Assembly (NCBI GenBank): GCA_964360065.1
Contig: CAYHTW010000002.1
Location: 2,251 to 66,250, forward strand
Origin: an uncultured Candidatus Saccharibacteria bacterium
Lineage (GTDB): Bacteria > Patescibacteriota > Minisyncoccia > UBA6257 > Colwellbacteraceae
DNA: 64,000 nucleotides
Direction: 5' to 3'
Shown: positions 7,027 through 62,123 of the stretch, in pieces
Layout of the letters: every line of letters begins with the position of its first letter
Numbering within the stretch: position 1 is the stretch's first letter
Program-made: the position numbers and the translations under genes
The notes under the pieces: generated by a model
Databases searched by the model: none
Told to the model about the DNA's origin: nothing
What the model saw: only the letters and a program-made list of their open reading frames with translations

Positions 7027-8309
7027 TTGAATAAAATTATAATTCTTTTTATGGTTTGGTCAAGCTGATTATATGTCACTGGTCTGCCTAAAGAAATACG
7101 AATACTGGAGCGGGAACGATTCTCTTTGTGCCCTAGGGCCGCTACTACATAAGAGTCTTCAAAACTCTTAGTGGAGCAAGCCGAACCAGATGACACTGCC
7201 ACGCCCGCCAAATCCATCTTTATAACGAGTTCCTGCAAGTCTCCCATCTCGGGGAAATATACATTGAGGTTGTTGGGCAATCTATGAACGTCTGACGAAG
7301 AACCGTTTAGCTCCAGGCGTGGTAAACTTGCTTTTAGCTTTTCCCAGAAGTAGTCCCGAAGAGAGGCAATGCGCGAAGACTCTTTATCTTTGTTTTTTAA
7401 AATCAGCTCCACGGCCTTGCCTAAGCCAACAATGGCTGGGACGTTTTCCGTGCCGGCTCGCAGACCGTACTCATGAGCCCCGCCAGTTATGATTGGGATT
7501 ATGAATGATGAATTATGAATTATGGACATTGTTTTTGATTCTTTATTCCTTATCCCTAATTCATTACTCTGGCGCACATACAGCACTCCGACTCCCTTTG
7601 GACCGTATATTTTATGGCCTGAAATAGTCATCATATCTACTCCCAGATGATCCACGTTACAATCCAAATATTGGAAGGCTTGAACAGCATCGGTGTGAAG
7701 CAATGGATACCTCTTGCCGCCTCTAAATTTTTTAATCACTTCGGCAATCTCTTTGATTGGCTCAACCGTGCCAATAACATTAGAGGCGAAGATAATAGAA
7801 ACCAAAACCGTGTTTTCGGTCAAATTGTTCTTTAGTGACTCTATATTTATAAAGCCCTCTTTATCAACCGGCAGATAAATTACTTCTACGCCTTCCTTTT
7901 CTAAATCTTTTGCTGTGTCTAAAACCGACTCGTGTTCAATGGAAGAAACAATAATACGAGGAATTACGAATTGTGAATTACGAATTGTGCTTTTATTTTT
8001 AACTCTTAACTCATAATTCCTTATTCCTTTTATACTCCCGCGAATAGCCAGGTTGTTAGCTTCGCTCGCAGAACCCGTAAAGATTATTTCATTAAACTTG
8101 GCTCCCAAGCTCCCCGCAACTATTTCTCTAGCTACATCGATTCCAGCCTGGGCACGCTGGCCAAAAGAATGCAGAGAACCGGCATTGCCGAAATCCACCG
8201 AAAAGTAAGGCTTCATAGCCTCTAAGACGCGTTTATCCATCGGCGAAGAAGCCGAGTAATCCAGATAAATTTCTTTTCTCTTCTTAGAAGAGTGTGTTAA
8301 CTTCTTCAA
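7023..8309 (-). CDS. Cysteine desulfurase (class V aminotransferase, IscS/NifS-like) carrying two in-frame AT-rich insertions
   Basis: PLP-lysine motif SGHKIYGPKG and active-site SSGSACS. Compared with canonical IscS spacing there are two extra segments of about 13-16 aa. Confidence 0.8.
   Translation of the reverse strand: MKKLTHSSKKRKEIYLDYSASSPMDKRVLEAMKPYFSVDFGNAGSLHSFGQRAQAGIDVAREIVAGSLGAKFNEIIFTGSASEANNLAIRGSIKGIRNYELRVKNKSTIRNSQFVIPRIIVSSIEHESVLDTAKDLEKEGVEVIYLPVDKEGFINIESLKNNLTENTVLVSIIFASNVIGTVEPIKEIAEVIKKFRGGKRYPLLHTDAVQAFQYLDCNVDHLGVDMMTISGHKIYGPKGVGVLYVRQSNELGIRNKESKTMSIIHNSSFIIPIITGGAHEYGLRAGTENVPAIVGLGKAVELILKNKDKESSRIASLRDYFWEKLKASLPRLELNGSSSDVHRLPNNLNVYFPEMGDLQELVIKMDLAGVAVSSGSACSTKSFEDSYVVAALGHKENRSRSSIRISLGRPVTYNQLDQTIKRIIILFK
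7494..7568. repeat. AT-rich palindromic mini-insertion (copy 1) inside the cysteine desulfurase ORF, kept in frame
   Basis: gaattatgaattatg...ttattccttatccctaattcattac with inverted termini; related to the copy at 7959-8030. Confidence 0.5.
7959..8030. repeat. AT-rich palindromic mini-insertion (copy 2) inside the cysteine desulfurase ORF, kept in frame
   Basis: aggaattacgaattgtgaattacgaattgtg...ctcataattccttattcc; the termini are inverted repeats (aggaattac / ataattcct). Confidence 0.5.
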
Positions 8310-8853
8310 CTTCGTCTTTAAACGTTAAAACGACTTTATTTAATTTATCACTCCACTTTTCCGGAACCATCAAGTACCCTTGATGCTTGGCCAGTTCGTA
8401 TAAATCACGGGTTATAAGAACATCGTGGAGACAATACTTCTCTAATGATTCCCAGTCGCCCGCATTATAGAAACGAACGGCATCCAAACCATGGTTCGTT
8501 TTGCCGATCCCCAGGTTAGCCTTAGCTAAAAGGTCTAAACCAATACGCCTGCCATAAGATTTTTCTATTTCTTCCAGTAAATCCAAGGTCGGTAGAGCAG
8601 TGACCTTGAAATTAAAATACTTGTCTAAAATCGGCATATCAAAACGGTTAATGGCAAAACCTATAACGAGACCGGCCTCCTGCAACATAGGAGAGAGTTT
8701 TTTGATCTTATCTTCCCTGAAAGAGAAAAACTCTTGCTTGTCGTAAGAATAAACACAAACCAAAGAGGCCTCTAAGTCTTTGAGATTTTTTTTACCTCCG
8801 ACGTCCATGAAGGTATTTTTAGTTTCAATGTCTATAACTAACCTGTCTTTCAT
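8284..8853 (-). CDS. RNase H-like 3'-5' exonuclease (DEDDy-type, PolB-exonuclease-like)
   Basis: Exo motifs LVIDIET, GFAINRFDMPIL and YCLHDVLITRDLY. Confidence 0.55.
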   Translation of the reverse strand: MKDRLVIDIETKNTFMDVGGKKNLKDLEASLVCVYSYDKQEFFSFREDKIKKLSPMLQEAGLVIGFAINRFDMPILDKYFNFKVTALPTLDLLEEIEKSYGRRIGLDLLAKANLGIGKTNHGLDAVRFYNAGDWESLEKYCLHDVLITRDLYELAKHQGYLMVPEKWSDKLNKVVLTFKDEVEEVNTLF

Positions 8854-8858
8854 GTCTC

Positions 8859-9365
8859 TTAAATATGTTTATCCGCCACCGATGAGGCTGCATAGCTTTC
8901 GGGCTTGGTGCGAACATCAAAGTTATTAGCTCTAATCATCCCGACGAGTTCCTGAATCATAACTTTAGTTTCACCGTTCTGGCCTATATCAATGTGGATT
9001 TCGAAACTCCAACCCAAGGCTGGTCCGCCTTTGGCTGGAAATTGAGGATATTGTTTCAACATTGCTAATATTTCTTTAGCTACATCCAAAGACATTAAAG
9101 CTTCACGAATCATCCTGTCTCTTAAAGTGTGGAACCCTGTGAGCTCTTCTCTCCTCCAGAAATACCTGCCGCCATTACCTATGCGGTGCACTACCACAGC
9201 AGTGACAAAGTCGGCCTTGGTCATACCATAAAGCTGAGAGTCGGTACCTATCATTACTTTATAGGCATAATCGGGAGCCTGATTCATAAAATCTATGACT
9301 TCACCAACTACCTCATCGGCAGTGAGTTTAATTCCTCCATAGCTGTTGAACTTAAGATTATCCAT
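8859..9365 (-). CDS. DUF458/YkuK-like RNase H-fold protein
   Basis: MIGTDSQ motif and a length and pattern typical of the YkuK family. Confidence 0.45.
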   Translation of the reverse strand: MDNLKFNSYGGIKLTADEVVGEVIDFMNQAPDYAYKVMIGTDSQLYGMTKADFVTAVVVHRIGNGGRYFWRREELTGFHTLRDRMIREALMSLDVAKEILAMLKQYPQFPAKGGPALGWSFEIHIDIGQNGETKVMIQELVGMIRANNFDVRTKPESYAASSVADKHI

Positions 9366-9435: not shown

Positions 9436-10753
9436 TTACCTGAGTCTATAAGCTTTTTTCAGACGAACAAGCTCACGCTTGACCCCTATTTCATTCGTAC
9501 CTTTTAAGTGGACTCTGACTGATGCTTCTGTGTTGGAGGCGCGGATATTAACCCAAACTTGGTTATTATAAAAACTAAAACCGTCTTGCCGTGAAACTTT
9601 GAACTTCGAAGCCGGGTAAAGTTTTCTGACTCTGGAAATAAGACCATCTGGATCACTGGTTTTCAGATTCAGACCAACGCCAGTGTAAACATATGGCAAG
9701 TTGTCCACCCACTCGGAGAGTGAAAGTTTTTGAGATTTCATTTTAGAAATTTGGTTAATAACAAAAATCGCTGTCATGATTCCAGAATCTGCGAAGAAAA
9801 AGTCTTTGAAGTAATAATGGCCGGACTGCTCGCCCGCAAACTCAGTTTTTCTGCGTCTCATTTCTTTTTTAATGAAATAATGGCCGGTACGAGTTTCGTT
9901 TACCTTTATACCAGGCTTTAACCATCGCAAAGGCACCGAGCCTAGCGCAGTGTCCACGAGATGCGGCTCCTTAAAAAGAGGTGAAAGTAGAATAAAGATG
10001 ATGCCCGCATCTAGGGCCCTGCCTTCATTATCAACAAAGAAAATTCTATCTCCGTCTGCATCAAAGACAGCTCCAAAATCTGCCTTGTTGTTCAATACTG
10101 TACGCTGCAGTTGTTCTTTGGCATCCGGTGCTATTGGATTCGGACCGTGGGCTGGGAAATTACCATCGGGCTTAGCATTGATAAATATGGCTTTGATTTT
10201 TTTATGCTTATTTTTCTTTTGGCCGAAAAGTTCTTTCAGAACCGGGCCAGTCGAACCATTAGAAGAATCGAAGACAACCATTAGGGGGTTTTTAACTTCC
10301 AGAAACTTACTCAAAAAACTAACGTAACTTTTTGTATATCGCATAGATTTCTTCTCCGTTAACAGGATCGCCTTTTTCTTTAACTAATTTCAGACCGTTG
10401 TATTGTTTCGGATTGTGAGAAGCTGTAACCATCATTCCTCCGTCTGATTTCAAGTGGTTAACTAAAAATGACATTTCTGGAGTAGTAATAAGCCCCGATA
10501 AATGTAGTTTACATTTAGGGCTAGCCTTTTTAATTGATCTTATTAAGGTCCGGTAAAGTGAAACAGAACTAAGACGTGGGTCGTGACCCACCACCAAGCT
10601 CCCCATCTTATTACGTTTTTTATTTCCATTGAGAAGAAGCTTGGTGGCAACTAGGCCTAGTTTACCAATGACTTCTTCGTTAATATTTTTGGGGTAGATC
10701 CCTCTCACGTCGTAAACTCCAAAAATGTTGGATTTATTAAATTTGTTTTTCAT
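9436..10753 (-). pseudogene. Phosphomannomutase/phosphoglucomutase split by a frameshift into 144 aa N-terminal (10319-10753) and 302 aa C-terminal (9436-10344) ORFs
   Basis: The N-terminal fragment carries the active-site TASHNP motif; the C-terminal fragment carries the metal-binding DADGDR motif and domains II-IV. The two frames overlap by 26 nt at an A5 run. Confidence 0.6.
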
Positions 10754-15511: not shown

Positions 15512-15588
15512 GGTGCCCAACGGGATTCGAACCCGTGATGAGAGTTCCACAAACTCTAGTGTTACCACTACACCATGGGCACCATAAT
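15512..15588 (-). tRNA. tRNA-His (anticodon GTG)
   Basis: Cloverleaf with an extra 5' G-1, anticodon loop ttGTGga, T-loop ggttcgaatcc. Confidence 0.8.
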
Positions 15589-15790
15589 TACGGTCAAATA
15601 TTAGCTGCTCTAAACCATAAGAGCAAGTTCAATTAAAGTTGAGATCGTTAAGGGCCTCTATGTTCATAATGTGTGACGATTTCATTAATGAAACCGATAT
15701 CGTATCAAGCCTGAAAGTCTCAGACTCAATGAGCTCTAACTTGGTGCCGCAATAGGGAATTAAACACCTTTAGTCTTTCTTAATTTTTTG

Positions 15791-15862
15791 TGCCGGACCC
15801 CAGAGTCGAACTGGGCACGCCTGCCTCTTCAGGGCAGCGCTCTACCGATGAGCTAGTCCGGC
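15791..15862 (-). tRNA. tRNA-Phe (anticodon GAA)
   Basis: Acceptor gccggac/gtccggc, anticodon loop ctGAAga, T-loop gttcgactc. Confidence 0.8.
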
Positions 15863-15951
15863 TTAACGGACAAAATTGTAGCATCGGCTTTCCGTAAATT
15901 GCAATCAGAAAAAATTTCATATACTCTTCGTTAGAAATAGCCGCCCCGTAA

Positions 15952-16023
15952 GCCCTCATAGTTCAATGGATAGAACAATTCCGTCCTAAGGAAAAAATGG
16001 GAGTTCGATTCTCTCTGAGGGCA
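15952..16023 (+). tRNA. tRNA-Arg (anticodon CCT)
   Basis: Acceptor gccctca/tgagggc, anticodon loop gtCCTaa, T-loop gttcgattc. Confidence 0.75.
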
Positions 16024-16030
16024 CAAAATA

Positions 16031-16064
16031 AAATCACCCAGCCTAGGCTGGGTGATTTTATTTT
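16031..16064. terminator. Bidirectional rho-independent terminator (aaaatcacccagcc-ta-ggctgggtgatttt) between tRNA-Arg (+) and cspA (-)
   Basis: Perfect 14 bp stem flanked by A-run and T-run. Confidence 0.7.
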
Positions 16065-16072
16065 ATAGTATC

Positions 16073-16270
16073 TTAGGCGCGTGAAACATTCGTAGCGCTG
16101 GGTCCCTTTTCGGTATCCACCACTTCAAATGAGACAACATCGCCAACCTTGAGTTCATCGTACATAACGCCCTGCAACTCCTTGGAGTGAAAGAAAATAT
16201 CTTTCTGTCCGTCTTCGCGGGCGATAAATCCGAAACCCTTCTGGGTCAAGGTCTTTATTGTTCCTGTCAT
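16073..16270 (-). CDS. cspA: Cold-shock protein CspA family
   Basis: GTIKTLTQKGFGFIARED...VSFEV is a canonical cold-shock domain, 65 aa. Confidence 0.9.
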   Translation of the reverse strand: MTGTIKTLTQKGFGFIAREDGQKDIFFHSKELQGVMYDELKVGDVVSFEVVDTEKGPSATNVSRA

Positions 16271-16471
16271 TTATTTTTTTGTATTTTGTGTAAGAAACTC
16301 GACTTGTTGCTTAACTTGAACTAAGTATAGCATAAACGCTAATAGTTTGCAATCAGGCTCGACCTTTAAGCTAGCCTGGGGTTATAAATCTATGGATAAG
16401 GGGGGTAGGCGAACCAGAATGGTCAAGGGCCTCTTCTCCAGTTATAATCAGATTAAACTCTTACTCTACTA

Positions 16472-17023
16472 ATGCACCCTTTAAAGTTTTTTATGCGATC
16501 TATGCGGAATTGGAAAACTATTGGTACGCCAATGCCCTCTTCACTTATCGCCTCTAAAAAAATGGCCGATCCAGTTGATTTCGGTTCCGCAAGATGTGTA
16601 GTGGAACTCGGAGCAGGCTCGGGACCGATAACTAAAGAATTATTAAAGAGGTTGCATCCAGAGGCCAAGCTTTTTGTTTTTGAGAGAGTAAAAGATTTTT
16701 CGGACTTGATTAGAGATTTCAACGACCCGCGACTCACTGTCGTAAATGACTCAGCAGAGAAACTCATCCCTATTTTGAAATCTTATGGAGTAGAGATGGT
16801 GGACGCCGTGGTTTCAACGCTCCCGCTCGCTCTGATGGACAAAGAGGTTAAAGAAAATATATACTCCTCTATTTCCAAAATTCTGCGTCCTGGGAGTCCT
16901 TACGTTCAGATACAGTATTCTCTGCTTTCCAAACGTGAACTCAAAAAGAATTTTTCTAAAGTTAGTTTAAGATTTACTATACTTAATTTCCCTCCTTCTT
17001 TTTTCTACACCTGCAGAGTTTAA
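16472..17023 (+). CDS. Class I SAM-dependent methyltransferase
   Basis: Motif I VELGAGSGPITKELL. Confidence 0.55.
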   Translation: MHPLKFFMRSMRNWKTIGTPMPSSLIASKKMADPVDFGSARCVVELGAGSGPITKELLKRLHPEAKLFVFERVKDFSDLIRDFNDPRLTVVNDSAEKLIPILKSYGVEMVDAVVSTLPLALMDKEVKENIYSSISKILRPGSPYVQIQYSLLSKRELKKNFSKVSLRFTILNFPPSFFYTCRV

Positions 17024-17389
17024 GAAGAAAGCTTGGGAACGGTTTTTGATAATCAACACTAAGGCAATGGTAGCTATGGATACGTCTCTGAAAATCACTT
17101 GAAAATCACCTAAATCAAAGAAGACTATGGCGAATAATAGGATGAAGGCAGCTAAGCTCGGCCAAAAGACTTTCCAGCCCGAAAGAATCCATAAAGCTAT
17201 TATAATTTCTACAACTCCGAAAGAGTGCAAGAGAACTGCGTCAGGCACAAATCCCCGCATAAAAGCAGGGAAGTAGCCGATCCAAGAGTAAGGATCAAAG
17301 AAGGCATTGATAGGAGGGAAAAGGAAGGAAAAAGCCAATCCTCCCCTCAAAACCCAGTCGATAAGTTTATCTAGATTCATTACCGACAT
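16967..17389 (-). CDS. DoxX-like small membrane protein (start trimmed to MSVMNL)
   Basis: Four hydrophobic helices; the long upstream extension in the ORF track is probably not translated. Confidence 0.4.
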   Translation of the reverse strand: MSVMNLDKLIDWVLRGGLAFSFLFPPINAFFDPYSWIGYFPAFMRGFVPDAVLLHSFGVVEIIIALWILSGWKVFWPSLAAFILLFAIVFFDLGDFQVIFRDVSIATIALVLIIKNRSQAFFLNSAGVEKRRREIKYSKS

Positions 17390-17537
17390 TAGCAGCGCTG
17401 TCGTTGGTGGTTGCGGGTTGATTAGTGGCAGTGTCTGGAGCTTGAGTTGATTGTGGCTGGGCGTAAAGGACGTAGACAATTCCTACTACAACCGCCACAA
17501 CAATCACGGCTGCTATAATTTTGTTATTACTGTTCAT
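17367..17537 (-). CDS. Candidate 56 aa membrane-anchored small protein MNSNNKIIAAVIVVAVVVGIVYVLYAQPQ...
   Basis: Manual translation. An N-terminal TM helix, then a Thr/Asn-rich tail. Overlaps the DoxX-like start region in another frame. Confidence 0.2.
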   Translation of the reverse strand: MNSNNKIIAAVIVVAVVVGIVYVLYAQPQSTQAPDTATNQPATTNDSAANVGNESR

Positions 17538-17675
17538 TCTGAATATATTTGTTTTTTTAATAGCGACTTATTAATCTTACAGACTATAATTATAGCATAG
17601 ATGTAACCGCGAATTATGGAAGTTGCTAAGGAAGCTCCGATAAATTAGAATCAATTTATTCGTAAATGAGGCTAT

Positions 17676-17747
17676 GCCCTTGTAGCTCAATGGATAGAGC
17701 AGTGCTCTTCTAAGGCATTGATGCGGGTTCGATTCCTGCCGGGGGCA
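17676..17747 (+). tRNA. tRNA-Arg (anticodon TCT)
   Basis: Anticodon loop ctTCTaa, T-loop gttcgattc. Confidence 0.75.
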
Positions 17748-17752
17748 CATTT

Positions 17753-17823
17753 CGGGCCGTCGTATACCGGTAGTACGCTTGCTTTGGGAGCAAGATGACC
17801 GAGTTCGATTCTCGGCGGCCCGA
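17753..17823 (+). tRNA. tRNA-Pro (anticodon TGG)
   Basis: Anticodon loop ttTGGga, T-loop gttcgattc; lies 6 nt after tRNA-Arg. Confidence 0.75.
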
Positions 17824-17854
17824 CTAGATAGAAAATAAAAGATGGGTCCGATGG

Positions 17855-18487
17855 TTATTTGGTGAGGTTATCAAATTGACTCATTAAATCCTTATATTTA
17901 TTGTTTAAGTCGTTAATTGCTTTAGCTTCGTCATTCATTGAAGAGATTAATTCTTTCACCTTCTCCTTAGCATTAGGTACGCTTCCAGAATTACTGAACC
18001 TGCTTAGTAAGACGTCCAAGAGTTGACGAACGTCAGCGTTGTAGTTTATAAGCCTTTGCACTATTTGAGATTCGTTCAAAACAGCCTCCAGACCAATACG
18101 GGCTGCATTTTCCGGTTTAACAGAATTAAGATTATTAGTCATTACTCCTAGTTGCGTAGAGAGATCGTAGGCTTTAACGAAAGCTGCTTCGTTGTCCTGA
18201 ATTTCTTTTGAAACCAAGTTCAAGCCATCTGTATAATTCCCTCTTTCGTCGGCCTGTCTAATATTCTCCAAATTAGCTATTGATGTTTCGGAAGAAGCGA
18301 CAATTTCTTCGGCAATAATAGCTCCCCTACCACGGGCGTCAGTAAAGTCTTGGGGTACAAATGTCTTTGGGAAACTGATAACCAGGACGACTTTAACTAG
18401 AAAGTAAATGGCTACCAAGCCCACCACCATTACAGAGGCTGTCCTAAACCAGTATTTCTTCATTATGTGCATTGTCGGCATATCCAT
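17855..18487 (-). CDS. Membrane-anchored hypothetical protein with coiled-coil ectodomain
   Basis: N-terminal TM helix VMVVGLVAIYFLVKVVLVI and no known motif. Confidence 0.45.
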   Translation of the reverse strand: MDMPTMHIMKKYWFRTASVMVVGLVAIYFLVKVVLVISFPKTFVPQDFTDARGRGAIIAEEIVASSETSIANLENIRQADERGNYTDGLNLVSKEIQDNEAAFVKAYDLSTQLGVMTNNLNSVKPENAARIGLEAVLNESQIVQRLINYNADVRQLLDVLLSRFSNSGSVPNAKEKVKELISSMNDEAKAINDLNNKYKDLMSQFDNLTK

Positions 18488-18547
18488 AAAATCTATTCAA
18501 TTTCTTTACAAGAATCAAGCATTCAATTAAAATGACGTAGATTTAAA

Positions 18548-18621
18548 GCGGGATTAGTATAGTGGCAGTACGCTACCTTGCCAAGGTAATGGCGCCGGTT
18601 CGATTCCGGTATCCCGCTCCA
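18548..18621 (+). tRNA. tRNA-Gly (anticodon GCC), CCA encoded
   Basis: gcgggat...ttGCCaa...ggttcgattcc...atcccgc-t-cca. Confidence 0.85.
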
Positions 18622-30798: not shown

Positions 30799-32037
30799 TT
30801 ATTCTTCGCCTACCTTATGATAGACCGGCTTATCGCCATCTTCAACAATATCTTCAGCTTTGGGTTTTACGGCAGCAATGCCCTCGGCGGAGGCGATGCC
30901 TCCCTCTAAGGCCACATCCGGCTTGGATTGAGAACGAACATCTATCTTCCAACCAGTAAGCTTAGCTGCTAGCCTAACATTCTGCCCACCTTTGCCGATA
31001 GCTAAAGATTGCTGATCATCTGGTACAAAGGCTTTGGCTTCTCTTTCTCCAGAAAGCTCAACTGACCTTACTTTAGCGGGAGACAACGAGTACGCAATAA
31101 ACTTAGCGGGGTCTTCGGACCATTCAATGATATCAAGTTTCTCCTGACCTAATTCGCTATTAACCGCCATAACGCGAGTACCACGCTGACCCACACAGCT
31201 TCCTACCGGATCAACTCCGTCTACATTAGAGGCCACGGCAATTTTAGTGCGGCTGCCCGGTTCTCTGGCGATAGCTTTTATCTCTACAACTTTATCGGCA
31301 ATTTCTGGGACTTCCATTTCAAAAAGCTTGCTGACAAATTTCGGGTGAGCCCTGGACAGCACTATGCCCGCATTTCTGCTTTCGGTCTGGACAGAAAGAA
31401 CGTAAAACTTCATTCTCTCCATGGCTTTATAGTACTCACCGGGGATAGCTTCATTTGGGAACATAATACCTATAGTTCGGCCAAGGTCTATGAAAACATT
31501 ACCTCTTTCAAAGCGCTGAATAATACCGGAAACAACTTGCCCTTCTTTATTTTTAAACTCCGCTGTAATCGATTCCCTTTCAGCTTCCCTTATTTTCTGG
31601 ATGATGACTTGTTTAGCGGTCTGAGCGGCAATACGGCCGAAGTCAGTCTTGGCCTCCAAGGGGAACTCAAATTCATCACCCACTTTAACATCTTTTTTCA
31701 TTTTTTTAGCTTCACCAACCAATAAGTGTCTCTCGGAATTGTAGCGGGGTAAAGGAGCTTCTTCTCCTTCAATCCTTTCTGTCACTTCTTCTACATCAAC
31801 GCTCTCGGGATCAACTATTTTAACAGTAGTCTCGTCTACTACCTCTTTGACCTGTGTAAACTTGATGTCACCTTGGTCCATATCCAACTTGGCTTTAACG
31901 ACGACGCCACGGGTCATATACTCCTTTTTGTAGGCAGCAGCGAGGGCGCCTTCAATAGCCTCGAAAACTTTTGCGGCTTCTATTTTTTTATCTTCAGTGA
32001 TTTGGGCCACGCCCTGTATTAATGCTTTTAAGTCCAT
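30799..32037 (-). CDS. nusA: Transcription termination/antitermination factor NusA (start at MDLKALIQ)
   Basis: N-terminal domain, S1 and tandem KH domains (GQRGTRV). Confidence 0.8.
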   Translation of the reverse strand: MDLKALIQGVAQITEDKKIEAAKVFEAIEGALAAAYKKEYMTRGVVVKAKLDMDQGDIKFTQVKEVVDETTVKIVDPESVDVEEVTERIEGEEAPLPRYNSERHLLVGEAKKMKKDVKVGDEFEFPLEAKTDFGRIAAQTAKQVIIQKIREAERESITAEFKNKEGQVVSGIIQRFERGNVFIDLGRTIGIMFPNEAIPGEYYKAMERMKFYVLSVQTESRNAGIVLSRAHPKFVSKLFEMEVPEIADKVVEIKAIAREPGSRTKIAVASNVDGVDPVGSCVGQRGTRVMAVNSELGQEKLDIIEWSEDPAKFIAYSLSPAKVRSVELSGEREAKAFVPDDQQSLAIGKGGQNVRLAAKLTGWKIDVRSQSKPDVALEGGIASAEGIAAVKPKAEDIVEDGDKPVYHKVGEE

Positions 32038-32118
32038 ACTAATTAATCTAAAGACCCGAATAACTTCGGGTCTTTCATTGCAAGAGATTGTACTTCTTCC
32101 CTGTTGAGCCGTCAAATC

Positions 32119-33354
32119 TTATAATGGCAACCCGAGGAGCTTCATTGCTTCTTTAAGACCGTTGAAAGAAGTGCTAACGACAAGATAATTATTGAACCGG
32201 GCGTAATTAAAAGAGGCTCCTATGGTGGAATAATTAATATATCTGGCCTTAGCGTCGCCAATGGTTATACCGTCCTTGAAAACTCCTATAGCTGCTCCAG
32301 GAGAAGTTAAGAATAAATTAGGCAAGTTGTCGGAAGACTCTATACTTTTTATGTCGGCAGAGACGGTAGCGGGGTTTGCCGAATCGTTTAGTTTAAAGAT
32401 ATAACCCGGCCTAGAACCATTAGCATCTTTGTAAACGAAAGCGGTCATGTCTCTATCGAAGGCGGTCAAAATTGTCGTTGGGTTCAGTTCCGGGAAGGCA
32501 ATAGCCATAAAAGCTGTGGCATCAACCGGAGAATTATTTACATTAAGGTTGATTTCGGTGAGAGTCTTGGGTTGAGCACCGAAAACAGCCGCAGTAAAAG
32601 CCGTTTGGATTTCGCCGAGAGTTAAAGTGGTCAGATTAACTGTGGAAGTAGAGGTCGGGGCAGTAATGAAAAAGGTTTGATGAGTTAACTGGGTGACTAC
32701 GGGGGGGGTGTTAGTGGTTGCTGAGGTTTGATCTCCGGTAGTATCAGTTGTGACGGAAACGGGGGTATTATTTCCCACTGGGAAAATAAGAGGCATGATA
32801 AAGAAGTAAATAACGAGTCCTGCTATAACAACAAGCGCGGCTGAAGCAGCTACTATAAGTAACGAACTTGGGCTATGTGCTGGTAGAACTACTTTAGTAG
32901 TGGCTCCTGGTGCCGAAGTGACCGCAGAAGGGTTGAAAACTGGCGCCTTAGAAAAATCAGCAGGCTGGAAAGTAGTTGGTTTAGTCTCAAGTCCTCCAGT
33001 TGATTTCAGAGAGGAAAGGTCGCTGGCCATAGTTCTGATGCCAATATCTGGAGCTGGAGGTGGAGGAACCGGAGAAGAGGTCCTGGCGGAAAAATTAGGA
33101 GGCGTAGTAAAAGAAACGGGGGGAGCCATAGGTGGACCCTGTTGGATCGGGGTAGTAGGTGTTACCGGAGAAATTGGTTTTGGCGCTATTGGAGATATTG
33201 GTGGGGCTACCGGCGGAGGTGGCGGTGGCGGTGGAGGAGGAGGCGGCGGTACTGGAGAACTATCAGGTATTCCAGCTGGCGGAACCGGCGGTTTATATTC
33301 GTTGTTGTCCGGCAAAGGAGCCGGACCTTGTAAGTTGTCTTGGTTACCGTTCAT
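32119..33354 (-). CDS. Proline-rich membrane-anchored protein (13-residue polyPro tract, single TM)
   Basis: Low-complexity Pro/Thr-rich N-terminal half, a TM helix, and a folded C-terminal domain. Confidence 0.5.
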   Translation of the reverse strand: MNGNQDNLQGPAPLPDNNEYKPPVPPAGIPDSSPVPPPPPPPPPPPPPVAPPISPIAPKPISPVTPTTPIQQGPPMAPPVSFTTPPNFSARTSSPVPPPPAPDIGIRTMASDLSSLKSTGGLETKPTTFQPADFSKAPVFNPSAVTSAPGATTKVVLPAHSPSSLLIVAASAALVVIAGLVIYFFIMPLIFPVGNNTPVSVTTDTTGDQTSATTNTPPVVTQLTHQTFFITAPTSTSTVNLTTLTLGEIQTAFTAAVFGAQPKTLTEINLNVNNSPVDATAFMAIAFPELNPTTILTAFDRDMTAFVYKDANGSRPGYIFKLNDSANPATVSADIKSIESSDNLPNLFLTSPGAAIGVFKDGITIGDAKARYINYSTIGASFNYARFNNYLVVSTSFNGLKEAMKLLGLPL

Positions 33355-33417: not shown

Positions 33418-35514
33418 CTATTTATTAAGCTGCTTTAAAGAAAGGCCTATCTTACCTTTTTCGGTTTTAATGACTTTGGCCCTAACTATTTCGCCGAGTT
33501 TCACTACATCAGACACTTTTTCCACGAAACCGTCTTTGAGTTCAGAAACATGAATCATTCCGTCCCGGCCTCCTCCTAAATCAACAATGGCTCCAAAATC
33601 CAACATTTTTATAATCGCCCCCTCTACAATTTCTCCAATCTCAAACTCTTTAACGATGTTTTTAACTTCTGCCATGGCCGCCTCCGCTGATTCTTTGGAA
33701 CCGGCAACATAAACCAAGCCGGCCTGCTCTATATCAATACTAATGGCTCCGGTACGTGCAATAATACCGTTGATCATTTTCCCTCCAGGACCGATGACTT
33801 CTCCGATCTTTTCCGGATCAATGGTAATAGTAAGAACACGCGGGGCATATTCTGAAAGTTCCGATTTGGGAGTTTTAATAACGCCGTCAATAAAATCCAA
33901 AATATGGAGCCTGGCTTGTTTAGCCTGTTGAAGCGATTTCTCCAAAATTTCAAAACTCACTCCGTCAATCTTTACGTCCATTTGAATAGCGTTAACACCA
34001 TCCCGTGTGCCAGCTACTTTAAGATCCATATCTCCATAATGATCTTCCGGTCCTTGAATGTCGGTTAAAACTTTATATTTACCGGCTTCGCCTGTCATCA
34101 AGCCCATAGCGATACCAGCCGCAGACTTTTTGACCGGGACTCCTGCATCCATCAAGGCCATAACAGAGGCGCAGACGGTAGCCATAGAAGAGGAGCCGTT
34201 AGAAGAAAGGACTTCCGAAACAACTCTAATGGTGTAGGGGAAATCTTCTTTACTTGGGATTAAGGGGCGGACAGCTTTTTCGGCTAAGGCGCCATGACCA
34301 ATTTCACGCCTGCCCGGAGCTCCAACTCGGCCAGTTTCCCCTACAGAGTAAGGCGGGAAGTTGTAGTGAAGCATAAATCTTTTCTTGCCGGACTGCTCTA
34401 TGGTTTCAATAAGTTGCTCCGAGCCAGGAGCGGCAAGCGTCACAACTCCCAAAGCCTGCGTGTTTCCTCTTATAAACAGCGCCGAGCCATGAGCACGTGG
34501 AAGAAAGCTTATTTCTCCATAAAGCTCCCTGACCTCATCTAACTTCCTGCTATCGGGTCTCTTGTCTTCTTTTAATATTTTCTCGTGCACCATAGCGTCA
34601 ACCGCTTCTTCAAAAAGGTGATTAATGGCTGCTGAATCGGCTTCAACGACTCTGGATTCATTAAGATAAGCTTCCAAAGTTTCTTTAACTTCTGCAAGAT
34701 TAACTTCTCTTTCGGTTTTGTCTTTGACATAGATAGCTTTATCCAGTTTACCGGATAGAAAATCGCTAACAGTTTTTTTCAAATCCGCTGAAGGTTCTTT
34801 TAAATGGAAATCTGATTTTTTGCTGCCAACTTCTTTTTGGAACTTTTCCTGGAAATCAAGAATTTTATTTATTTCTTTTGAAGCGAGCTTGAAGGCTTCC
34901 ATAATATCGCCTTCTTTAGCGTCATCACCGCTAAGTTCAATCATATTGATTTTATCTCTGGATCCGGCTACGAAAGTTTCAAACTCAACTTTGCCTTTGG
35001 AGAGTTCGCTAAGCTTGGGATTAATAATAATTTTGCCGTCAATTTTAGCCACTTTAACTCCCCCCACCGGCCCTTTCCAGGGAATGTTAGAGCTCAAGAT
35101 GGCGGCTGAAGCAGTATTAAGAGCCACCAAATCTGGGTCGTGTTCTTCGTCAAATGACATGATGGTGACTACTATCTGTATATCTTTCCTTATTCTATTA
35201 TTAAATAAAGGGCGAATGGCGCGGTCCACGAGACGTCCCGAGAGAATCGCTTCATCTGATGGCCTACCCTCTCTTCTTAAGAAACGGCTGCCCAATATCT
35301 TACCAACAGCATAGAATCTCTCTTCGTAATCAACGCTTAGTGGCATGTAATCTATATCCCTGTCCTCTCCCCCCACTACAACGGTAGCTAGGACAGTTGT
35401 ATCTCCATACCTGCCGATAACGGCAGCATTGGCCTGCTCGGCAATTTTTGATACTTCCAGTTTTAGAATCTTGCCACCTACTTCAGTTTCAAAAGATTTT
35501 CTATGCAATTCCAT
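33418..35514 (-). CDS. pnp: Polyribonucleotide nucleotidyltransferase (PNPase)
   Basis: Two RNase PH domains, KH and S1 domains. Confidence 0.9.
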   Translation of the reverse strand: MELHRKSFETEVGGKILKLEVSKIAEQANAAVIGRYGDTTVLATVVVGGEDRDIDYMPLSVDYEERFYAVGKILGSRFLRREGRPSDEAILSGRLVDRAIRPLFNNRIRKDIQIVVTIMSFDEEHDPDLVALNTASAAILSSNIPWKGPVGGVKVAKIDGKIIINPKLSELSKGKVEFETFVAGSRDKINMIELSGDDAKEGDIMEAFKLASKEINKILDFQEKFQKEVGSKKSDFHLKEPSADLKKTVSDFLSGKLDKAIYVKDKTEREVNLAEVKETLEAYLNESRVVEADSAAINHLFEEAVDAMVHEKILKEDKRPDSRKLDEVRELYGEISFLPRAHGSALFIRGNTQALGVVTLAAPGSEQLIETIEQSGKKRFMLHYNFPPYSVGETGRVGAPGRREIGHGALAEKAVRPLIPSKEDFPYTIRVVSEVLSSNGSSSMATVCASVMALMDAGVPVKKSAAGIAMGLMTGEAGKYKVLTDIQGPEDHYGDMDLKVAGTRDGVNAIQMDVKIDGVSFEILEKSLQQAKQARLHILDFIDGVIKTPKSELSEYAPRVLTITIDPEKIGEVIGPGGKMINGIIARTGAISIDIEQAGLVYVAGSKESAEAAMAEVKNIVKEFEIGEIVEGAIIKMLDFGAIVDLGGGRDGMIHVSELKDGFVEKVSDVVKLGEIVRAKVIKTEKGKIGLSLKQLNK

Positions 35515-35524
35515 CTATTTAAAT

Positions 35525-36058
35525 TTATTGCTTCTTCGCTTTCTTAAAAACTTTAAAAACAACTCCCGGGGTTTTACCTAAATCTATAAAAGAATCCGCA
35601 GTGTCTTCCAACTTGGAGGAAGCGGTCCTATCAAAAGCGGCTACTTCCACGGTCCTGCCCAGCCCCCACTTTAAATATTCGACTAAAGGGATAAAATCCC
35701 CGTCACCGCTTACTATAATAACTACATCTACTAAGCTCGCCATTCTGATAGCGTCAACGGCGAGCCCCACATCCCAATCGGCTTTTTTCATGCCATCCGG
35801 GAAAATCTGGATGTCTTTAATACGAAGTTCTATACCGGCCTTGTTTAGAGCATCAAAAAAAGCGCCCTCACCTGTAGCGGGATCGCTTTTAACAACATAA
35901 CCAAGAGCCCGAACAAGACGTCTGCCGTTAACGAGACGTTTTAAGAGATTATCAAAATTGACACGTCCGCCATATAAATTCTTGGCGGAATGATAAAGGT
36001 TCTGGATATCAATGAAGACTCCAACTCGCTGTTCCTTATTGGCTTGCACTACAGACAT
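35525..36058 (-). CDS. NYN/LabA-like (PIN-fold) putative RNase, translationally coupled to rpsO
   Basis: VGVFIDIQNLYH ... VVIIVSGDGDF acidic-residue pattern of NYN domains; the ATG overlaps the rpsO stop (TAATG). Confidence 0.65.
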   Translation of the reverse strand: MSVVQANKEQRVGVFIDIQNLYHSAKNLYGGRVNFDNLLKRLVNGRRLVRALGYVVKSDPATGEGAFFDALNKAGIELRIKDIQIFPDGMKKADWDVGLAVDAIRMASLVDVVIIVSGDGDFIPLVEYLKWGLGRTVEVAAFDRTASSKLEDTADSFIDLGKTPGVVFKVFKKAKKQ

Positions 36059-36324
36059 TATCTCTTAAGGCCAAGCTTTTTGATAAGCTTAGCGTAACCC
36101 TCCAAAGAATTAATAGAGAGGTACTGCAAAAGCTTCCTTCTCTTGGCAACCATACCTAGTAAACCTTTTCTAGAGTGATTATCCTTGGGGTTTTTCTTTA
36201 AATGAGAGGCTAACTTTTCCATTTCCTTACTGATAACGGCTACCTGTACTTCCGCGGATCCAGTGTCTTTATCGTGAGCTTGATGCTCGTCAATTACCTT
36301 TTTCTTTTGTTTAGTAGTTAACAT
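36058..36324 (-). CDS. rpsO: 30S ribosomal protein S15
   Basis: Canonical bS15 sequence, 88 aa. Confidence 0.9.
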   Translation of the reverse strand: MLTTKQKKKVIDEHQAHDKDTGSAEVQVAVISKEMEKLASHLKKNPKDNHSRKGLLGMVAKRRKLLQYLSINSLEGYAKLIKKLGLKR

Positions 36325-36458
36325 ATTTCACCCAATTTAGCAGGTTTGGCTTGATTTGTAAAGGCTGACCGGCTCGTTTTTAGTGTCGCAAAATATTCCT
36401 TGTTACAACTTGAATAGATTCAAATCGTAAAAGGACAAAATATTATGCAACAGTATAT

Positions 36459-37382
36459 GTGTCGCATAATATTTTGATGTATAATCTAAGCATGGATTTA
36501 CAAAAAACCGTAAAGGACTATCTAGACTATCTGGAGGTGGAGAAAAACCGCTCTCCTCTGACGCGTAAGTCCTACGAAAGATGTCTTAGAAAGTTCCTCC
36601 TTATTACGGGAGCCAAAAAGATTAGCGACGTGACCGAAGAAAGCATCAGAGAGTTCAGAGTTAAGCTTGCCGACATGCCCGGCATTAAGAAAGGAACGCA
36701 GGCCTACCACATAATAGTCATAAGAAACTTCCTGAAATATTTGGCTAAGCGCGGGATTGCCTCTGTTTCCGCCGACAAGATTGAGTTGCCTAAGGTACCG
36801 CAACGGCAGATAAGTGTTCTGGAATATGCTGATTTAGAAAGACTCCTTGCAGCACCTAAGGGCAATGATTTAAAGAGTTTGAGAGATAGGGCAATACTGG
36901 AGACATTTTTTTCCACGGGCCTCCGTATTTCCGAGCTATGTTCTATGGACCGATTTACTAATTTTGACAGAGGTGAGCTCACTATAAGAGGCAAGGGTGA
37001 AAAATTACGTACAGTATTCCTATCCGAACGAGCTAAAAAGACAATTAAAGAATATTTAGACAAGCGAACTGACACAGACCAGGCGCTTTTCATCAGCATT
37101 TCTAAAGGGAAAAGCCCTAAAGTTCTGGGGCGTATTATCCCCCGCACTATTCAAAGAATGGTGGATTATTACGGCCGGGCAGCCGGCATTCCAAATAGGA
37201 TTACCCCACATAAGTTGCGCCACCAATTCGCAACCGACTTATTAATGAATGGAGCGGACTTAAGAAGTGTGCAGGAACTTTTAGGCCACGCCAATATCAC
37301 CACTACCCAGATTTATACCCACGTTACAAACAAAGAACTCCACGAAGTCCACGACGCCTTCCACGGACGGAGGAGGAAGTAA
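36459..37382 (+). CDS. Tyrosine site-specific recombinase XerC/XerD family
   Basis: R...HKLRHQFAT...LGHANITTTQIYTHV catalytic motifs. Confidence 0.85.
   Translation: MSHNILMYNLSMDLQKTVKDYLDYLEVEKNRSPLTRKSYERCLRKFLLITGAKKISDVTEESIREFRVKLADMPGIKKGTQAYHIIVIRNFLKYLAKRGIASVSADKIELPKVPQRQISVLEYADLERLLAAPKGNDLKSLRDRAILETFFSTGLRISELCSMDRFTNFDRGELTIRGKGEKLRTVFLSERAKKTIKEYLDKRTDTDQALFISISKGKSPKVLGRIIPRTIQRMVDYYGRAAGIPNRITPHKLRHQFATDLLMNGADLRSVQELLGHANITTTQIYTHVTNKELHEVHDAFHGRRRK
37308..37382. repeat. Direct repeat copy 1 (3' terminal 75 nt of the recombinase gene)
   Basis: 50/50 identical and then 19/25 identical to 38137-38211; every difference is synonymous in the recombinase frame. Confidence 0.8.
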
Positions 37383-37438
37383 CTATCCACAAGCCTTTGA
37401 CATGATATGACTTCTGTCTTAAACTAACACAGAAGTCA

Positions 37439-37473
37439 CCTGCGCCCGCCGAAAGGCTGTGTGCAGGTTTTTT
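37439..37473 (+). terminator. Probable rho-independent terminator after the recombinase gene (GC stem plus T6)
   Basis: cctgc...gcagg stem followed by tttttt. Confidence 0.4.
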
Positions 37474-37511
37474 ATTTACAAACGAATAAATAGGCCATAG
37501 AATCTCCATAT

Positions 37512-38357
37512 ATGGAGACCGAACGCGTTTGTATATTTATAGATGGCGGGAATTTTTATCATCTTGCGTTACAAAGACTTGGATTGCATGAAGTAGATTT
37601 TGATTTTGATAAATTCGCCACGTTTCTAGCTAATGGGAGGACTATAGCTAAAGAAGGAAAAAGATTTTATATAGGGACTGTAAGAGAGATACATGATGGG
37701 CACGAAAATAAACAGGCGATGATGCACCAAACAGCTCTTTTCCGTGAATTAATAGAGAAGGGTAATTGGGGAATTAAAACGAGTAAGCTAAGAACTAGAT
37801 TAGAGAGAATTAAAATTGATGATAGGTTTATAGATTATCAAAAACTACTTAAGGCTGGCTTTAAGGAAGTTGCTTATACTAGATCTAGAGAAAAAGGCAT
37901 TGATGTCAAAATGGCTACTGATATAATTGTTGGCGCAATAGATAAGAAATATGACACAGCTATCGTAGTTAGTTCAGATACAGATATTATACCAGCAATA
38001 GATTGGGTACGGATGAGGCTACATAAAAAAGTAGAATACGTTGGATTCTCTATGCCAGAAACCAAAACAAAAGAGGCTATTAAGCCTACAAAGACCATGA
38101 TTTATAAAACCGATGTACAGAGGGTTCTAATTGACTCAGATTTATACCCACGTTACAAACAAAGAACTCCACGAAGTCCACGACGCTTTCCACGGCAGAA
38201 GGAGAAAGTAATTTATTTTCTAGAAAGTTTGGCGCGCGCCAGCTCCATAGCTACCAACCGGGGATTCTTTTTCTCGGCAACTGATTTTCGAAGCACTGCC
38301 TGGGTGGTTTTCTTGATTTTTTTCTCCACTAAATCAAGCATCCGTTTCGGATTGTAA
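37512..38357 (+). CDS. NYN-domain (PIN-like) protein; the ORF reads through the downstream repeat copy, so the last ~70 aa are probably non-native
   Basis: CIFIDGGNFYH, KGIDVKMATD and VSSDTDIIPA motifs. The C-terminal tail is encoded by the duplicated recombinase 3' end and by gdh antisense sequence. Confidence 0.6.
   Translation: METERVCIFIDGGNFYHLALQRLGLHEVDFDFDKFATFLANGRTIAKEGKRFYIGTVREIHDGHENKQAMMHQTALFRELIEKGNWGIKTSKLRTRLERIKIDDRFIDYQKLLKAGFKEVAYTRSREKGIDVKMATDIIVGAIDKKYDTAIVVSSDTDIIPAIDWVRMRLHKKVEYVGFSMPETKTKEAIKPTKTMIYKTDVQRVLIDSDLYPRYKQRTPRSPRRFPRQKEKVIYFLESLARASSIATNRGFFFSATDFRSTAWVVFLIFFSTKSSIRFGL
38137..38211. repeat. Direct repeat copy 2 (displaced duplicate of recombinase 3' end, still ending in TAA)
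   Basis: See copy 1. Confidence 0.8.
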
Positions 38358-39365: not shown

Positions 39366-39447
39366 TGCCCCCGAGAGGATTTGAACCTCTAACCCTTGCA
39401 GGACGTGCTCCTAAGGCACGCGCGTATGCCAATTCCGCCACGGGGGC
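39366..39447 (-). tRNA. tRNA-Leu (anticodon TAG), long variable arm
   Basis: 82 nt, anticodon loop ctTAGga, T-loop ggttcaaatcc. Confidence 0.8.
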
Positions 39448-53034: not shown

Positions 53035-53472
53035 CTAAAATTTTGGATTCTTATCGTAATATCCCGATTTATAAAGGCGCCATATAACCTTATAATTTTT
53101 AGGCACGTTCGTGTCTCTTCCAATATTTTCTAACCATTCCTCAAACTGTATGCCCTTATGTCCATAAAGCCTTTTATAGAAGAACGGTACAATTGTATTT
53201 TTAAGCGTTCCAAGGTCCCTAACCATCAACCTAACTATTGCGCCTCTATTATGACCGTCTTTCCTATACGGGCCGAGCCTATACATTCTAGTCTTTATAT
53301 TAAGATGATTTCTTACGGCTTCTACGAGATCACCATCTCTCTCATTCATGGTGATAGTGAACATAGGAAGTCTTGGTTTCATTGATTGGCCATTCTTCAA
53401 TGGTACATTACAAAAACTAAAACATCCCTCTCCTTCTATAAGTCCCCTAATGTAATCGTTAGTTAAAATCAT
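53035..53472 (-). CDS. Free-standing single-motif LAGLIDADG homing-endonuclease-like protein (145 aa)
   Basis: YIRGLIEGEGCFSF is a LAGLIDADG-type motif; its size matches homodimeric single-motif enzymes. Confidence 0.7.
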   Translation of the reverse strand: MILTNDYIRGLIEGEGCFSFCNVPLKNGQSMKPRLPMFTITMNERDGDLVEAVRNHLNIKTRMYRLGPYRKDGHNRGAIVRLMVRDLGTLKNTIVPFFYKRLYGHKGIQFEEWLENIGRDTNVPKNYKVIWRLYKSGYYDKNPKF

Positions 53473-61123: not shown

Positions 61124-61648
61124 ATGTCAGGACACAGTAAGTGGAAACAAATAAAACACAAAAAGGAGATAACCGATAAAAAACGGAGTCAAAATTTCAG
61201 TAAACTTCTGAAGGCTATTAAGGTGGCGGCCAAGGGTAACCCCAACCCTGAATTTAACCCCAAGCTCCGCTCGGCTATTGATAAGGCTAAAGAATTTCAG
61301 GTTCCACAAGACAATATTGAACGTGCTGTAGAACAAATTGGAGAAAAAGATTTAGAAGATGTTACTATTGAGGCTTATGGCCCCAGTGGATCGGCCTTAA
61401 TTATCGAAGCCGTAACTGATAATACCAACAGAACTATCAACGAAATTAAGAATATATTAAAGAATATGGGCGCCAAATTTGCCGAACCTGGAAGCGTACG
61501 TTGGTCTTTTAATCTACCCGCGGGGGAAGTCGGCTGGACTCCTAAGTTTGAACAGGAACTAAATGAAATTGATTTGAAAAAATTAAATGAACTCGTAGAA
61601 ACGCTTGAAGAACATGATGATGTACAAGAAGTCTTTAAGAACGCCTAG
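61124..61648 (+). CDS. YebC/PmpR-family protein (short form, 174 aa)
   Basis: MSGHSKWKQIKHKK N-terminus is characteristic of the family. Confidence 0.7.
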   Translation: MSGHSKWKQIKHKKEITDKKRSQNFSKLLKAIKVAAKGNPNPEFNPKLRSAIDKAKEFQVPQDNIERAVEQIGEKDLEDVTIEAYGPSGSALIIEAVTDNTNRTINEIKNILKNMGAKFAEPGSVRWSFNLPAGEVGWTPKFEQELNEIDLKKLNELVETLEEHDDVQEVFKNA

Positions 61649-62123
61649 TATAACCATCCTCGGAGTAGATCCCGGGACGATGAGAATAGGCTACGGGGTT
61701 ATAAGCAAGAGTGGTAGCCACTTTGAAGCTCTCACTTATGGAGTCATTGAGCCTGTTAGTGGGAACGGCCGCTTTAAAGATATAGGTCAAGGGCTTAATA
61801 AACTCATTAAAAAATATAAGCCGAATGTAGCGGCAGTAGAGAAAATATTTTTCTCCAAGAACAAGAAGACAGCCATGGCAGTGGCAGAAGCTAGGGGAGT
61901 AATTCTATTTATTTTAGAGCAACACAGCATTAAAACGCTGGAATTTTCACCCAACGAGATTAAGGCAGCCGTGACCGGCTCTGGAATGAGTGATAAGAAA
62001 ACAGTGTCTCAGTTCACAGCCTCTGCCTTAGGACTGAAAAAGATTTCTGGATACGACGATGCGGCTGATGCTTTGGCCGTAGCCGTCCGGGCAGCTTTCG
62101 AAAGGGGGGTTGACACAATATGA
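61605..62123 (+). CDS. ruvC: Crossover junction endodeoxyribonuclease RuvC (start uncertain, overlaps yebC-like 3' end)
   Basis: ILGVDPGTMRIGYGVI catalytic Asp context and the RNase H-like fold. Confidence 0.8.
   Translation: MKNMMMYKKSLRTPSITILGVDPGTMRIGYGVISKSGSHFEALTYGVIEPVSGNGRFKDIGQGLNKLIKKYKPNVAAVEKIFFSKNKKTAMAVAEARGVILFILEQHSIKTLEFSPNEIKAAVTGSGMSDKKTVSQFTASALGLKKISGYDDAADALAVAVRAAFERGVDTI

Follow-up and report, generated by a model that had tools for sequence, protein, structure and literature searches.

Between rpsO and pnp, in the stretch of DNA analysed here (64,000 nucleotides of contig CAYHTW010000002.1 from an uncultured Candidatus Saccharibacteria bacterium, placed by GTDB in the Colwellbacteraceae; hereafter the window), lies a gene for a 177-aa NYN-domain protein, which we call NYN1. 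The order rpsO-NYN1-pnp is conserved, and evidently ancestral, across Paceibacteria-type genomes. On balance, it appears probable that NYN1 is a vertically inherited core gene of the Paceibacteria that was captured once into the rpsO-pnp pair and retained there, and that it encodes a metal-dependent endoribonuclease feeding polynucleotide phosphorylase (PNPase), the product of pnp.

All three genes lie on the reverse strand and were delimited from the sequence and the listing of open reading frames (ORFs). The first gene of the unit, rpsO (36324..36058), encodes ribosomal protein S15 (88 aa; PF00312, 5.4e-29; TIGR00952, 2.5e-32 in profile searches). It is followed by NYN1 (36058..35525; NYN/LabA type) and by pnp (35514..33418), whose 698-aa product was identified as PNPase by profiles (NF008805, 9e-259) and contains the complete domain set of two RNase_PH domains, PNPase, KH, and S1. 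An original prediction for this DNA had described a 177-aa NYN gene that overlaps rpsO in a TAATG and ends 10 nt before pnp, and this was confirmed from the sequence. The forward strand reads CATTA at 36056-36060, which is TAATG on the coding strand, so that the TAA stop codon of rpsO and the ATG start codon of NYN1 share a single A. Between the end of the NYN1 stop codon at 35525 and the first base of the pnp ATG at 35514 lies a spacer of 10 nt (35515..35524, reverse strand). The one-base overlap of stop and start suggests that translation of NYN1 is coupled to that of rpsO. The arrangement is not an assembly artefact, because the identical protein in the same context was present on 8 contigs from independent groundwater metagenome assemblies.

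With spacers of 0 and 10 nt, the unit has no room for internal transcription signals, and the spacer in front of pnp is too short for a leader, a promoter, or a terminator. No terminator-like hairpin was found between rpsO, NYN1, and pnp in a sequence scan. Rfam at the gathering threshold detected only tRNAs in the whole window and neither an S15 nor a pnp leader, and region 35400-36600 gave no match at E values up to 1. Given these spacer lengths and the lack of an Rfam match, an autoregulatory leader of the Escherichia coli type, which the original prediction had mentioned for this gene pair, is impossible here. Upstream of rpsO, a promoter-like site (36334..36362, reverse strand; TTTACA, a 17-nt spacer, and a TG-extended TAAATT) was found by consensus scan only. 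Its -10 element ends 9 nt ahead of the rpsO ATG, and the promoter-like sequence is kept in a close relative, L090, whose NYN1 is 95% identical and whose rpsO-NYN1-pnp layout is the same as in the window.

The conservation of the gene order was examined in a species-level scan with one genome per species, in which at least 584 stretches encode a NYN1 relative; the best 80 were analysed, and neighbours were called by tblastn and ORF boundaries. For the rpsO count, loci needed 600 nt or more of sequence upstream (n = 77), and for the pnp count 3 kb or more downstream (n = 59). rpsO was found on the same strand immediately upstream of the NYN1 orthologue in 76 of 77 loci, and pnp was found downstream in 52 of 59, within 450 nt in 43 of them. 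The gap between rpsO and NYN1 has a median of 46 nt (range -11 to 465 nt) and is 4 nt or less in 20 of 78 loci; six loci have the identical 1-nt overlap and three have a 4-nt overlap. The lineages covered are Colwell-, Wolfe-, Jorgensen-, Lipton-, Sungi-, Taylor-, Nealson-, and Nomurabacteria as well as Paceibacter, i.e., the Parcubacteria/Paceibacteria radiation, and independent metagenome loci of the Paceibacteria type again had rpsO upstream and pnp downstream. The original prediction had itself named an ancestral, clade-wide rpsO-NYN-pnp order as the observation that would count against mobility, and for NYN1 this is what the relatives show.

The protein is conserved along with its position. 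NYN1 has thousands of close homologues, of which the best 120 are 66-100% identical and are named as Colwell-, Taylor-, Wolfe-, or Paceibacterota-type metagenome-assembled genomes (MAGs). Across candidate phyla, identity within the NYN1 subfamily is 51-80%. NYN1 is no less conserved than its neighbours: over 41 loci, the mean identity to the window proteins was 61% for NYN1, 55% for S15, and 54% for PNPase, a comparison that favours NYN1, as the loci had been picked by NYN similarity.

By all sequence and fold criteria tested, NYN1 is an ordinary member of PF01936 (LabA/DUF88, COG1432 type). The NYN assignment, which had originally been made from the sequence alone, was borne out by profile searches with hidden Markov models: NYN1 matched PF01936 over its full length (E 1.7e-31; 110.1 bits against a cut-off of 24.2; profile positions 1-144 of 145), and a second NYN gene of the window, NYN2, matched it with 8e-15. 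NYN1 is a bare, stand-alone NYN domain with a Lys-rich C-terminal tail. A profile of 24 NYN1 orthologues matched one solved structure, PDB 2QIP (6.7e-29), which is the LabA/DUF88 protein VPA0982 of Vibrio parahaemolyticus and is 30% identical to NYN1. The same structure ranked first when an AlphaFold2 model of NYN1 was used in a Foldseek search (E 9.9e-11, TM score 0.67-0.72), and the NYN domain of MARF1 came next; both matches place the model in the PIN-like alpha/beta fold. NYN1 shares with LabA/DUF88 proteins the stand-alone form of about 170 aa and the acidic motifs FIDxxN, DWD, and GDGDF. LabA/DUF88 proteins, however, occur in varied contexts and have no established biochemical function, whereas the NYN1 subfamily is fixed in the rpsO-pnp pair of one class and is unusually conserved. 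Residues D17, N20, D94, D96, D102, D119, and D121 are invariant in 81 of 81 orthologues from the candidate phyla radiation (CPR) and in 40 of 40 Woesearchaeota homologues. The invariance of the predicted metal-binding Asp residues argues for an active enzyme rather than a pseudo-enzyme, and NYN1 is thus a predicted metal-dependent endoribonuclease.

Several other assignments were excluded. YacP/Rae1 is a ribosome-associated endoribonuclease of Bacillus subtilis. The YacP/Rae1 family (NYN_YacP, PF05991) belongs, like NYN1, to the NYN-like group of PIN-like nucleases (PMC5499597) and has a functional link to the ribosome. NYN1 reads FIDIQNLYH, with D-I-Q-N in place of the G-Y-N that follows the first Asp in NYN_YacP proteins, and PF05991 was not among its Pfam matches at E values up to 0.01, so that membership in this family was rejected. 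The archaeal NYN family TIGR00288 was likewise rejected with 20.8 bits against a cut-off of 178.45. A VapC-type toxin module was excluded, as the Pfam search gave no match to PF01850 and the neighbours are rpsO and pnp, with no antitoxin gene. The only PADLOC match was a partial, domain-level one to a generic NYN model (2.9e-12, positions 150-297 of 310) and the neighbours are housekeeping genes; NYN1 was therefore not regarded as a defence protein.

Homologues outside the rpsO-linked clade were collected by an exhaustive search of cluster representatives, which gave 145 representatives at E values up to 1e-30. The nearest group beyond the rpsO-linked set is a highly conserved NYN family of Woesearchaeota (DPANN archaea) with proteins of about 170-200 aa that are 47-51% identical to NYN1; the family members listed (P0391-P0508) are 64-92% identical to the query P0283. 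On the contigs examined, the Woesearchaeota homologues showed no linkage to rpsO/S15, pnp, or exosome genes, and two long contigs (L092, L094) carry unrelated neighbours, with thioredoxin and a ZIP transporter in one and glycogen synthase in the other. One protein of a further group is named Dojkabacteria. With this group as the seed, a metagenome scan gave 80 loci, and those nearest to the Dojkabacteria or Woesearchaeota sequences had neither rpsO nor pnp and varied neighbours. Sorting the metagenome loci by their best match to three references was too crude, as some rpsO-linked loci scored best with the archaeal or the Dojkabacteria reference, and neighbour-joining trees were used instead. 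Linked and unlinked sequences fell into separate parts of these trees, with four exceptions, and we infer a single capture into the rpsO-pnp pair (or a single release). The Woesearchaeota sister family may reflect gene exchange between CPR and DPANN lineages, in either direction, as the root moved between analyses, with the unlinked groups basal in one tree and the rpsO-linked group basal in another. As to the four exceptions, L061, L133, and L142 carry a Paceibacteria-type NYN1 without detectable rpsO upstream, and L174 has the rpsO-NYN-pnp order, yet its NYN protein groups with the archaeal type.

For the role of NYN1, we propose that rpsO, NYN1, and pnp are carried on one nearly leaderless transcript that would start just upstream of rpsO, and that translation of NYN1 would be coupled to that of rpsO. 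NYN1 would be an Mg2+/Mn2+-dependent single-strand endoribonuclease. It would cut RNA internally, most likely precursors of rRNA, defective ribosomal RNA, or other RNAs with structure, and so create new 3' ends. PNPase, the co-expressed 3'-5' exonuclease, would then trim these ends, and the output of the endo- and exonuclease pair would thereby be tied to the synthesis of S15 and of the ribosome. The association with the RNA-degradation operon that the original prediction had raised as a possibility is upheld, as conserved synteny ties the putative RNase to S15 and PNPase. In earlier work, gene neighbourhood connected bacterial NYN genes with the processing of tRNA and rRNA, and none of these genes has been characterised (PMC5499597). 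A bacterial CRISPR-associated NYN protein is an Mn2+-dependent single-stranded RNA nuclease that trims RNA intermediates (bioRxiv 10.1101/2024.04.08.588522), which makes a nuclease activity of NYN1 plausible.

As to the substrates, we lean towards stable-RNA or ribosome-linked processing rather than bulk mRNA decay, because the tie of NYN1 to rpsO is tighter than that to pnp, because the archaeal homologues have no rpsO or pnp neighbours, because the window encodes RNase Y and a relative RNase J, and because the earlier neighbourhood work had already pointed to tRNA and rRNA processing (PMC5499597). Several points weigh against this proposal for NYN1. In 7 of 59 loci, pnp is not downstream although NYN1 remains behind rpsO, and linkage to rpsO is overall tighter than linkage to pnp. 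The unlinked Woesearchaeota and Dojkabacteria-type homologues are equally conserved, and as they lack rpsO and pnp neighbours, NYN1 does not need PNPase as a physical partner. With RNase Y, a decay-initiating endonuclease of the Firmicute type, in the window and RNase J in relatives, the initiation of general decay is already covered. Furthermore, the AlphaFold2 model of NYN1 has only moderate confidence (pLDDT 71.8), and longer NYN1-like proteins (n = 10, 350-550 aa) have extensions that are coiled-coil or unannotated, with no informative fused domain.

The presence of RNase Y also bears on the idea that NYN1 is the main endonuclease initiating mRNA decay in these reduced genomes, which would supply PNPase in a degradosome-like manner in place of an absent RNase E or RNase Y. 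NYN1 adjoins pnp in most genomes, and the exposed active site of NYN domains would suit single-stranded RNA (PMC5499597). However, the same 64-kb window contains an RNase Y gene (723-2246, reverse strand) that is complete by domain search, with RNase_Y_N, KH, and HD domains, a related Patescibacteria contig encodes RNase J, the linkage to pnp is looser than that to rpsO, and close archaeal homologues have no rpsO or pnp neighbour. A decay-initiating NYN1 is therefore unlikely, and its role as a stand-in for a missing enzyme was dropped in view of the RNase Y in the window. We are similarly doubtful that NYN1 is an operon-specific regulator that cleaves the rpsO-NYN1-pnp transcript in place of the RNase III-processed pnp leader of E. 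coli. NYN1 does occupy the slot of this cis-regulatory leader, and the 10-nt spacer and the lack of an Rfam match make a leader impossible here; but its very high conservation together with the unlinked Dojkabacteria-type and Woesearchaeota homologues points to a general substrate, a conserved cleavage structure was not identified, and the 7 loci without pnp downstream do not fit a regulator of this operon. Genetic work identifies cyanobacterial LabA as a regulator, and it has no demonstrated nuclease activity. A non-catalytic, RNA-binding or regulatory LabA-like function of NYN1 would agree with its Lys-rich C-terminal tail and with the fact that nuclease activity has been demonstrated for no bacterial COG1432-type NYN protein (PMC5499597). 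We give this explanation little weight, as none of the predicted metal-binding Asp residues varies among the 81 CPR and 40 archaeal sequences, which is unexpected for a pseudo-enzyme.

A broader and rather speculative explanation starts from the distribution of the NYN1-type family, which is nearly exclusive to Woesearchaeota and to CPR bacteria of ultra-small size (Paceibacteria, Dojkabacteria) and retains about 50% identity across domains. In this case, the family would consist of dedicated endonucleases for the maturation and quality control of rRNA or the ribosome that were exchanged between the two radiations, and in the Paceibacteria it would have been hard-wired to S15 and PNPase as a module of three genes for small-subunit RNA processing. 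rRNA genes of CPR often contain insertions, and such a function, if true, would explain how atypical rRNA precursors are processed in CPR and DPANN lineages. At the other end, the view of NYN1 as a mobile or newly acquired module, for example a cassette or a selfish PIN-like toxin, that came to lie between rpsO and pnp by chance is essentially refuted. It drew on the tyrosine recombinase gene next door, on the position of NYN2 1.5 kb away inside a repeat-bounded insertion, and on the domain-level PADLOC matches of the NYN domain. However, the position of NYN1 is constant in 76 of 77 species-level genomes, the layout in L090 is identical, no pair of direct or inverted repeats brackets 35525-36058, and the GC content of 0.43 is not anomalous against flanks of 0.43-0.45. 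Moreover, the upstream gene is rpsO rather than an antitoxin-like partner, and NYN1 and NYN2 share only 27% identity. The recombinase (xerC, XerC/D type; PF00589, 2.6e-41; 36459..37382, forward strand, divergent from rpsO; 301 aa with the start at 36477 given in the source annotation) occupies the same divergent position in 42 of the 64 related loci with enough upstream sequence, and we therefore regard it as a syntenic housekeeping Xer-type gene and not as the integrase of an element.

The suggestion of the original prediction that NYN genes behave as mobile or recruited modules thus failed for NYN1, with its ancestral order, normal GC content, and lack of repeats, and held for NYN2, with its repeats, low GC content, and empty site in a relative. 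The NYN2 ORF (37512-38357, forward strand) belongs to a different, also widespread Patescibacteria family of about 220 aa, whose neighbours differ in all four other genomes examined, and one MAG has both NYN families on separate contigs (L041, L089). By their sequences, NYN1 and NYN2 are distant paralogues from two different families, each of them broadly conserved among Patescibacteria, and for this reason they are not copies of one spreading cassette. At either boundary of the insertion that carries NYN2 (829 bp; 37383..38211, forward strand) lies a 78-nt direct repeat that corresponds to the xerC 3' end (37305-37382 and 38134-38211); the two copies are 92% identical, and their six differences are all synonymous in the xerC frame. 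Its GC content is 0.35-0.36 against 0.43-0.45 in the flanks, and in L090, the site is empty, with gdh and xerC directly convergent and no NYN2. The right junction lies at a 6-nt microhomology, TCAGAT, where the last approximately 12 codons of NYN2 were lost, and the truncated gene now forms a 281-aa ORF that continues across the remnant of the xerC tail and into the gdh 3' end, antisense to that gene. The simplest reading is that NYN2 was imported from a related lineage by homology-facilitated illegitimate recombination.

The rpsO-pnp pair of E. coli has the same two genes in the same order and orientation as those that flank NYN1 in the window. Its intergenic space contains a terminator, a promoter, and a regulatory hairpin, and the leader is processed by RNase III and autoregulated by PNPase. 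In the window, by contrast, a nuclease gene fills the gap, the spacers measure 0 and 10 nt, and no leader RNA was detected. The logic proposed for NYN1, in which an endonuclease creates entry sites for PNPase, resembles that of the RNase E-PNPase degradosome and of the RNase Y-PNPase partnership in Firmicutes. These are, however, physical complexes encoded by unlinked genes, whereas the link between NYN1 and PNPase is a genetic one within a single operon, and RNase Y is present in addition. Among NYN proteins, the MARF1 domain (PDB 5YAA, 6FDL) ranked second among the groups of fold matches (Foldseek probability 1.0, TM score about 0.5) at 17-19% identity, but in MARF1, a large eukaryotic protein, the NYN domain is combined with RRM and LOTUS domains, whereas in NYN1 it stands alone. 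One report (PMC6217404) describes the MARF1 NYN domain as an experimentally proven single-stranded RNA endonuclease. The CRISPR-associated NYN protein mentioned above, from Bacteroides fragilis, cleaves single-stranded RNA in an Mn2+-dependent and sequence-nonspecific manner and has been proposed to trim RNA intermediates, and NYN1 may have the same kind of activity. The Bacteroides protein belongs to a type III CRISPR locus and acts on CRISPR RNA, whereas NYN1 has no CRISPR context.

Full-text literature searches found no published description of the rpsO-NYN-pnp arrangement, and the main text of a Paceibacteria metatranscriptome paper mentions neither NYN nor PNPase. As far as these searches show, a class-wide three-gene variant of the rpsO-pnp pair without an equivalent of the E. 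coli cis-regulatory leader is new, and the Woesearchaeota sister family also appears to be undescribed. A pair that is often treated as invariant therefore has a lineage-wide three-gene variant, and the archaeal family may be a further instance of genes shared between CPR and DPANN. According to the 2017 classification of PIN-like nucleases (PMC5499597), no member of the large family of bacterial LabA/COG1432 NYN proteins has been characterised biochemically, and NYN1, being small (177 aa) and highly conserved, is a suitable candidate for testing this family. That it has stayed between rpsO and pnp in a major bacterial class for so long in evolution argues strongly, on grounds of guilt by association, that it takes part in RNA processing. 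Overall, we regard NYN1 as a useful functional lead and not as a new type of system.

The genes downstream of the unit are also partly conserved. pnp is followed by a gene for a 411-aa Pro-rich membrane protein without a Pfam match (32119..33354, reverse strand), and the next gene of the cluster is nusA (30799..32115, reverse strand; NusA_N and KH_5 domains), which is syntenic in the closest relatives. According to tblastn, homologues of the 411-aa protein are encoded downstream in 21 related loci. Of the seven loci in which pnp is not downstream, at least five (L040, L042, L048, L050, L059) have the homologue directly after NYN1. Behind the homologue, loci without pnp encode a DksA/TraR-like zinc-finger protein and a YifB/ComM-like ATPase, both of which were identified by reading translations only. 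On the other side of the unit, the divergent xerC-rpsO promoter region contains an AT-rich palindrome (36436-36476; 17-bp arms, 94% complementary, 7-nt loop) that is kept in L090 and may be an operator or a terminator.

Elsewhere in the window, two RNase H-like ORFs lie at 8284-8853 and 8859-9365. A free-standing ORF for a LAGLIDADG homing endonuclease (53035-53472, reverse strand; PF00961, 5e-09) has no evident host element, as the Rfam search of the window showed neither an rRNA gene nor an intron. Two genes appear to be split into overlapping ORFs, a phosphoglucomutase gene at 9436-10753 on the reverse strand (domain I at 10319-10753, domains II-III at 9436-10344) and a YebC/TACO1-like gene at 61124-62123 on the forward strand (61124-61648, the ORF that was scanned, and 61605-62123); these may be frameshifts, pseudogenes, or assembly errors. 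Seven of the 10 tRNA genes of the window are clustered on both strands at 15512-18618, and a further one (39366-39447) adjoins the start of gdh.

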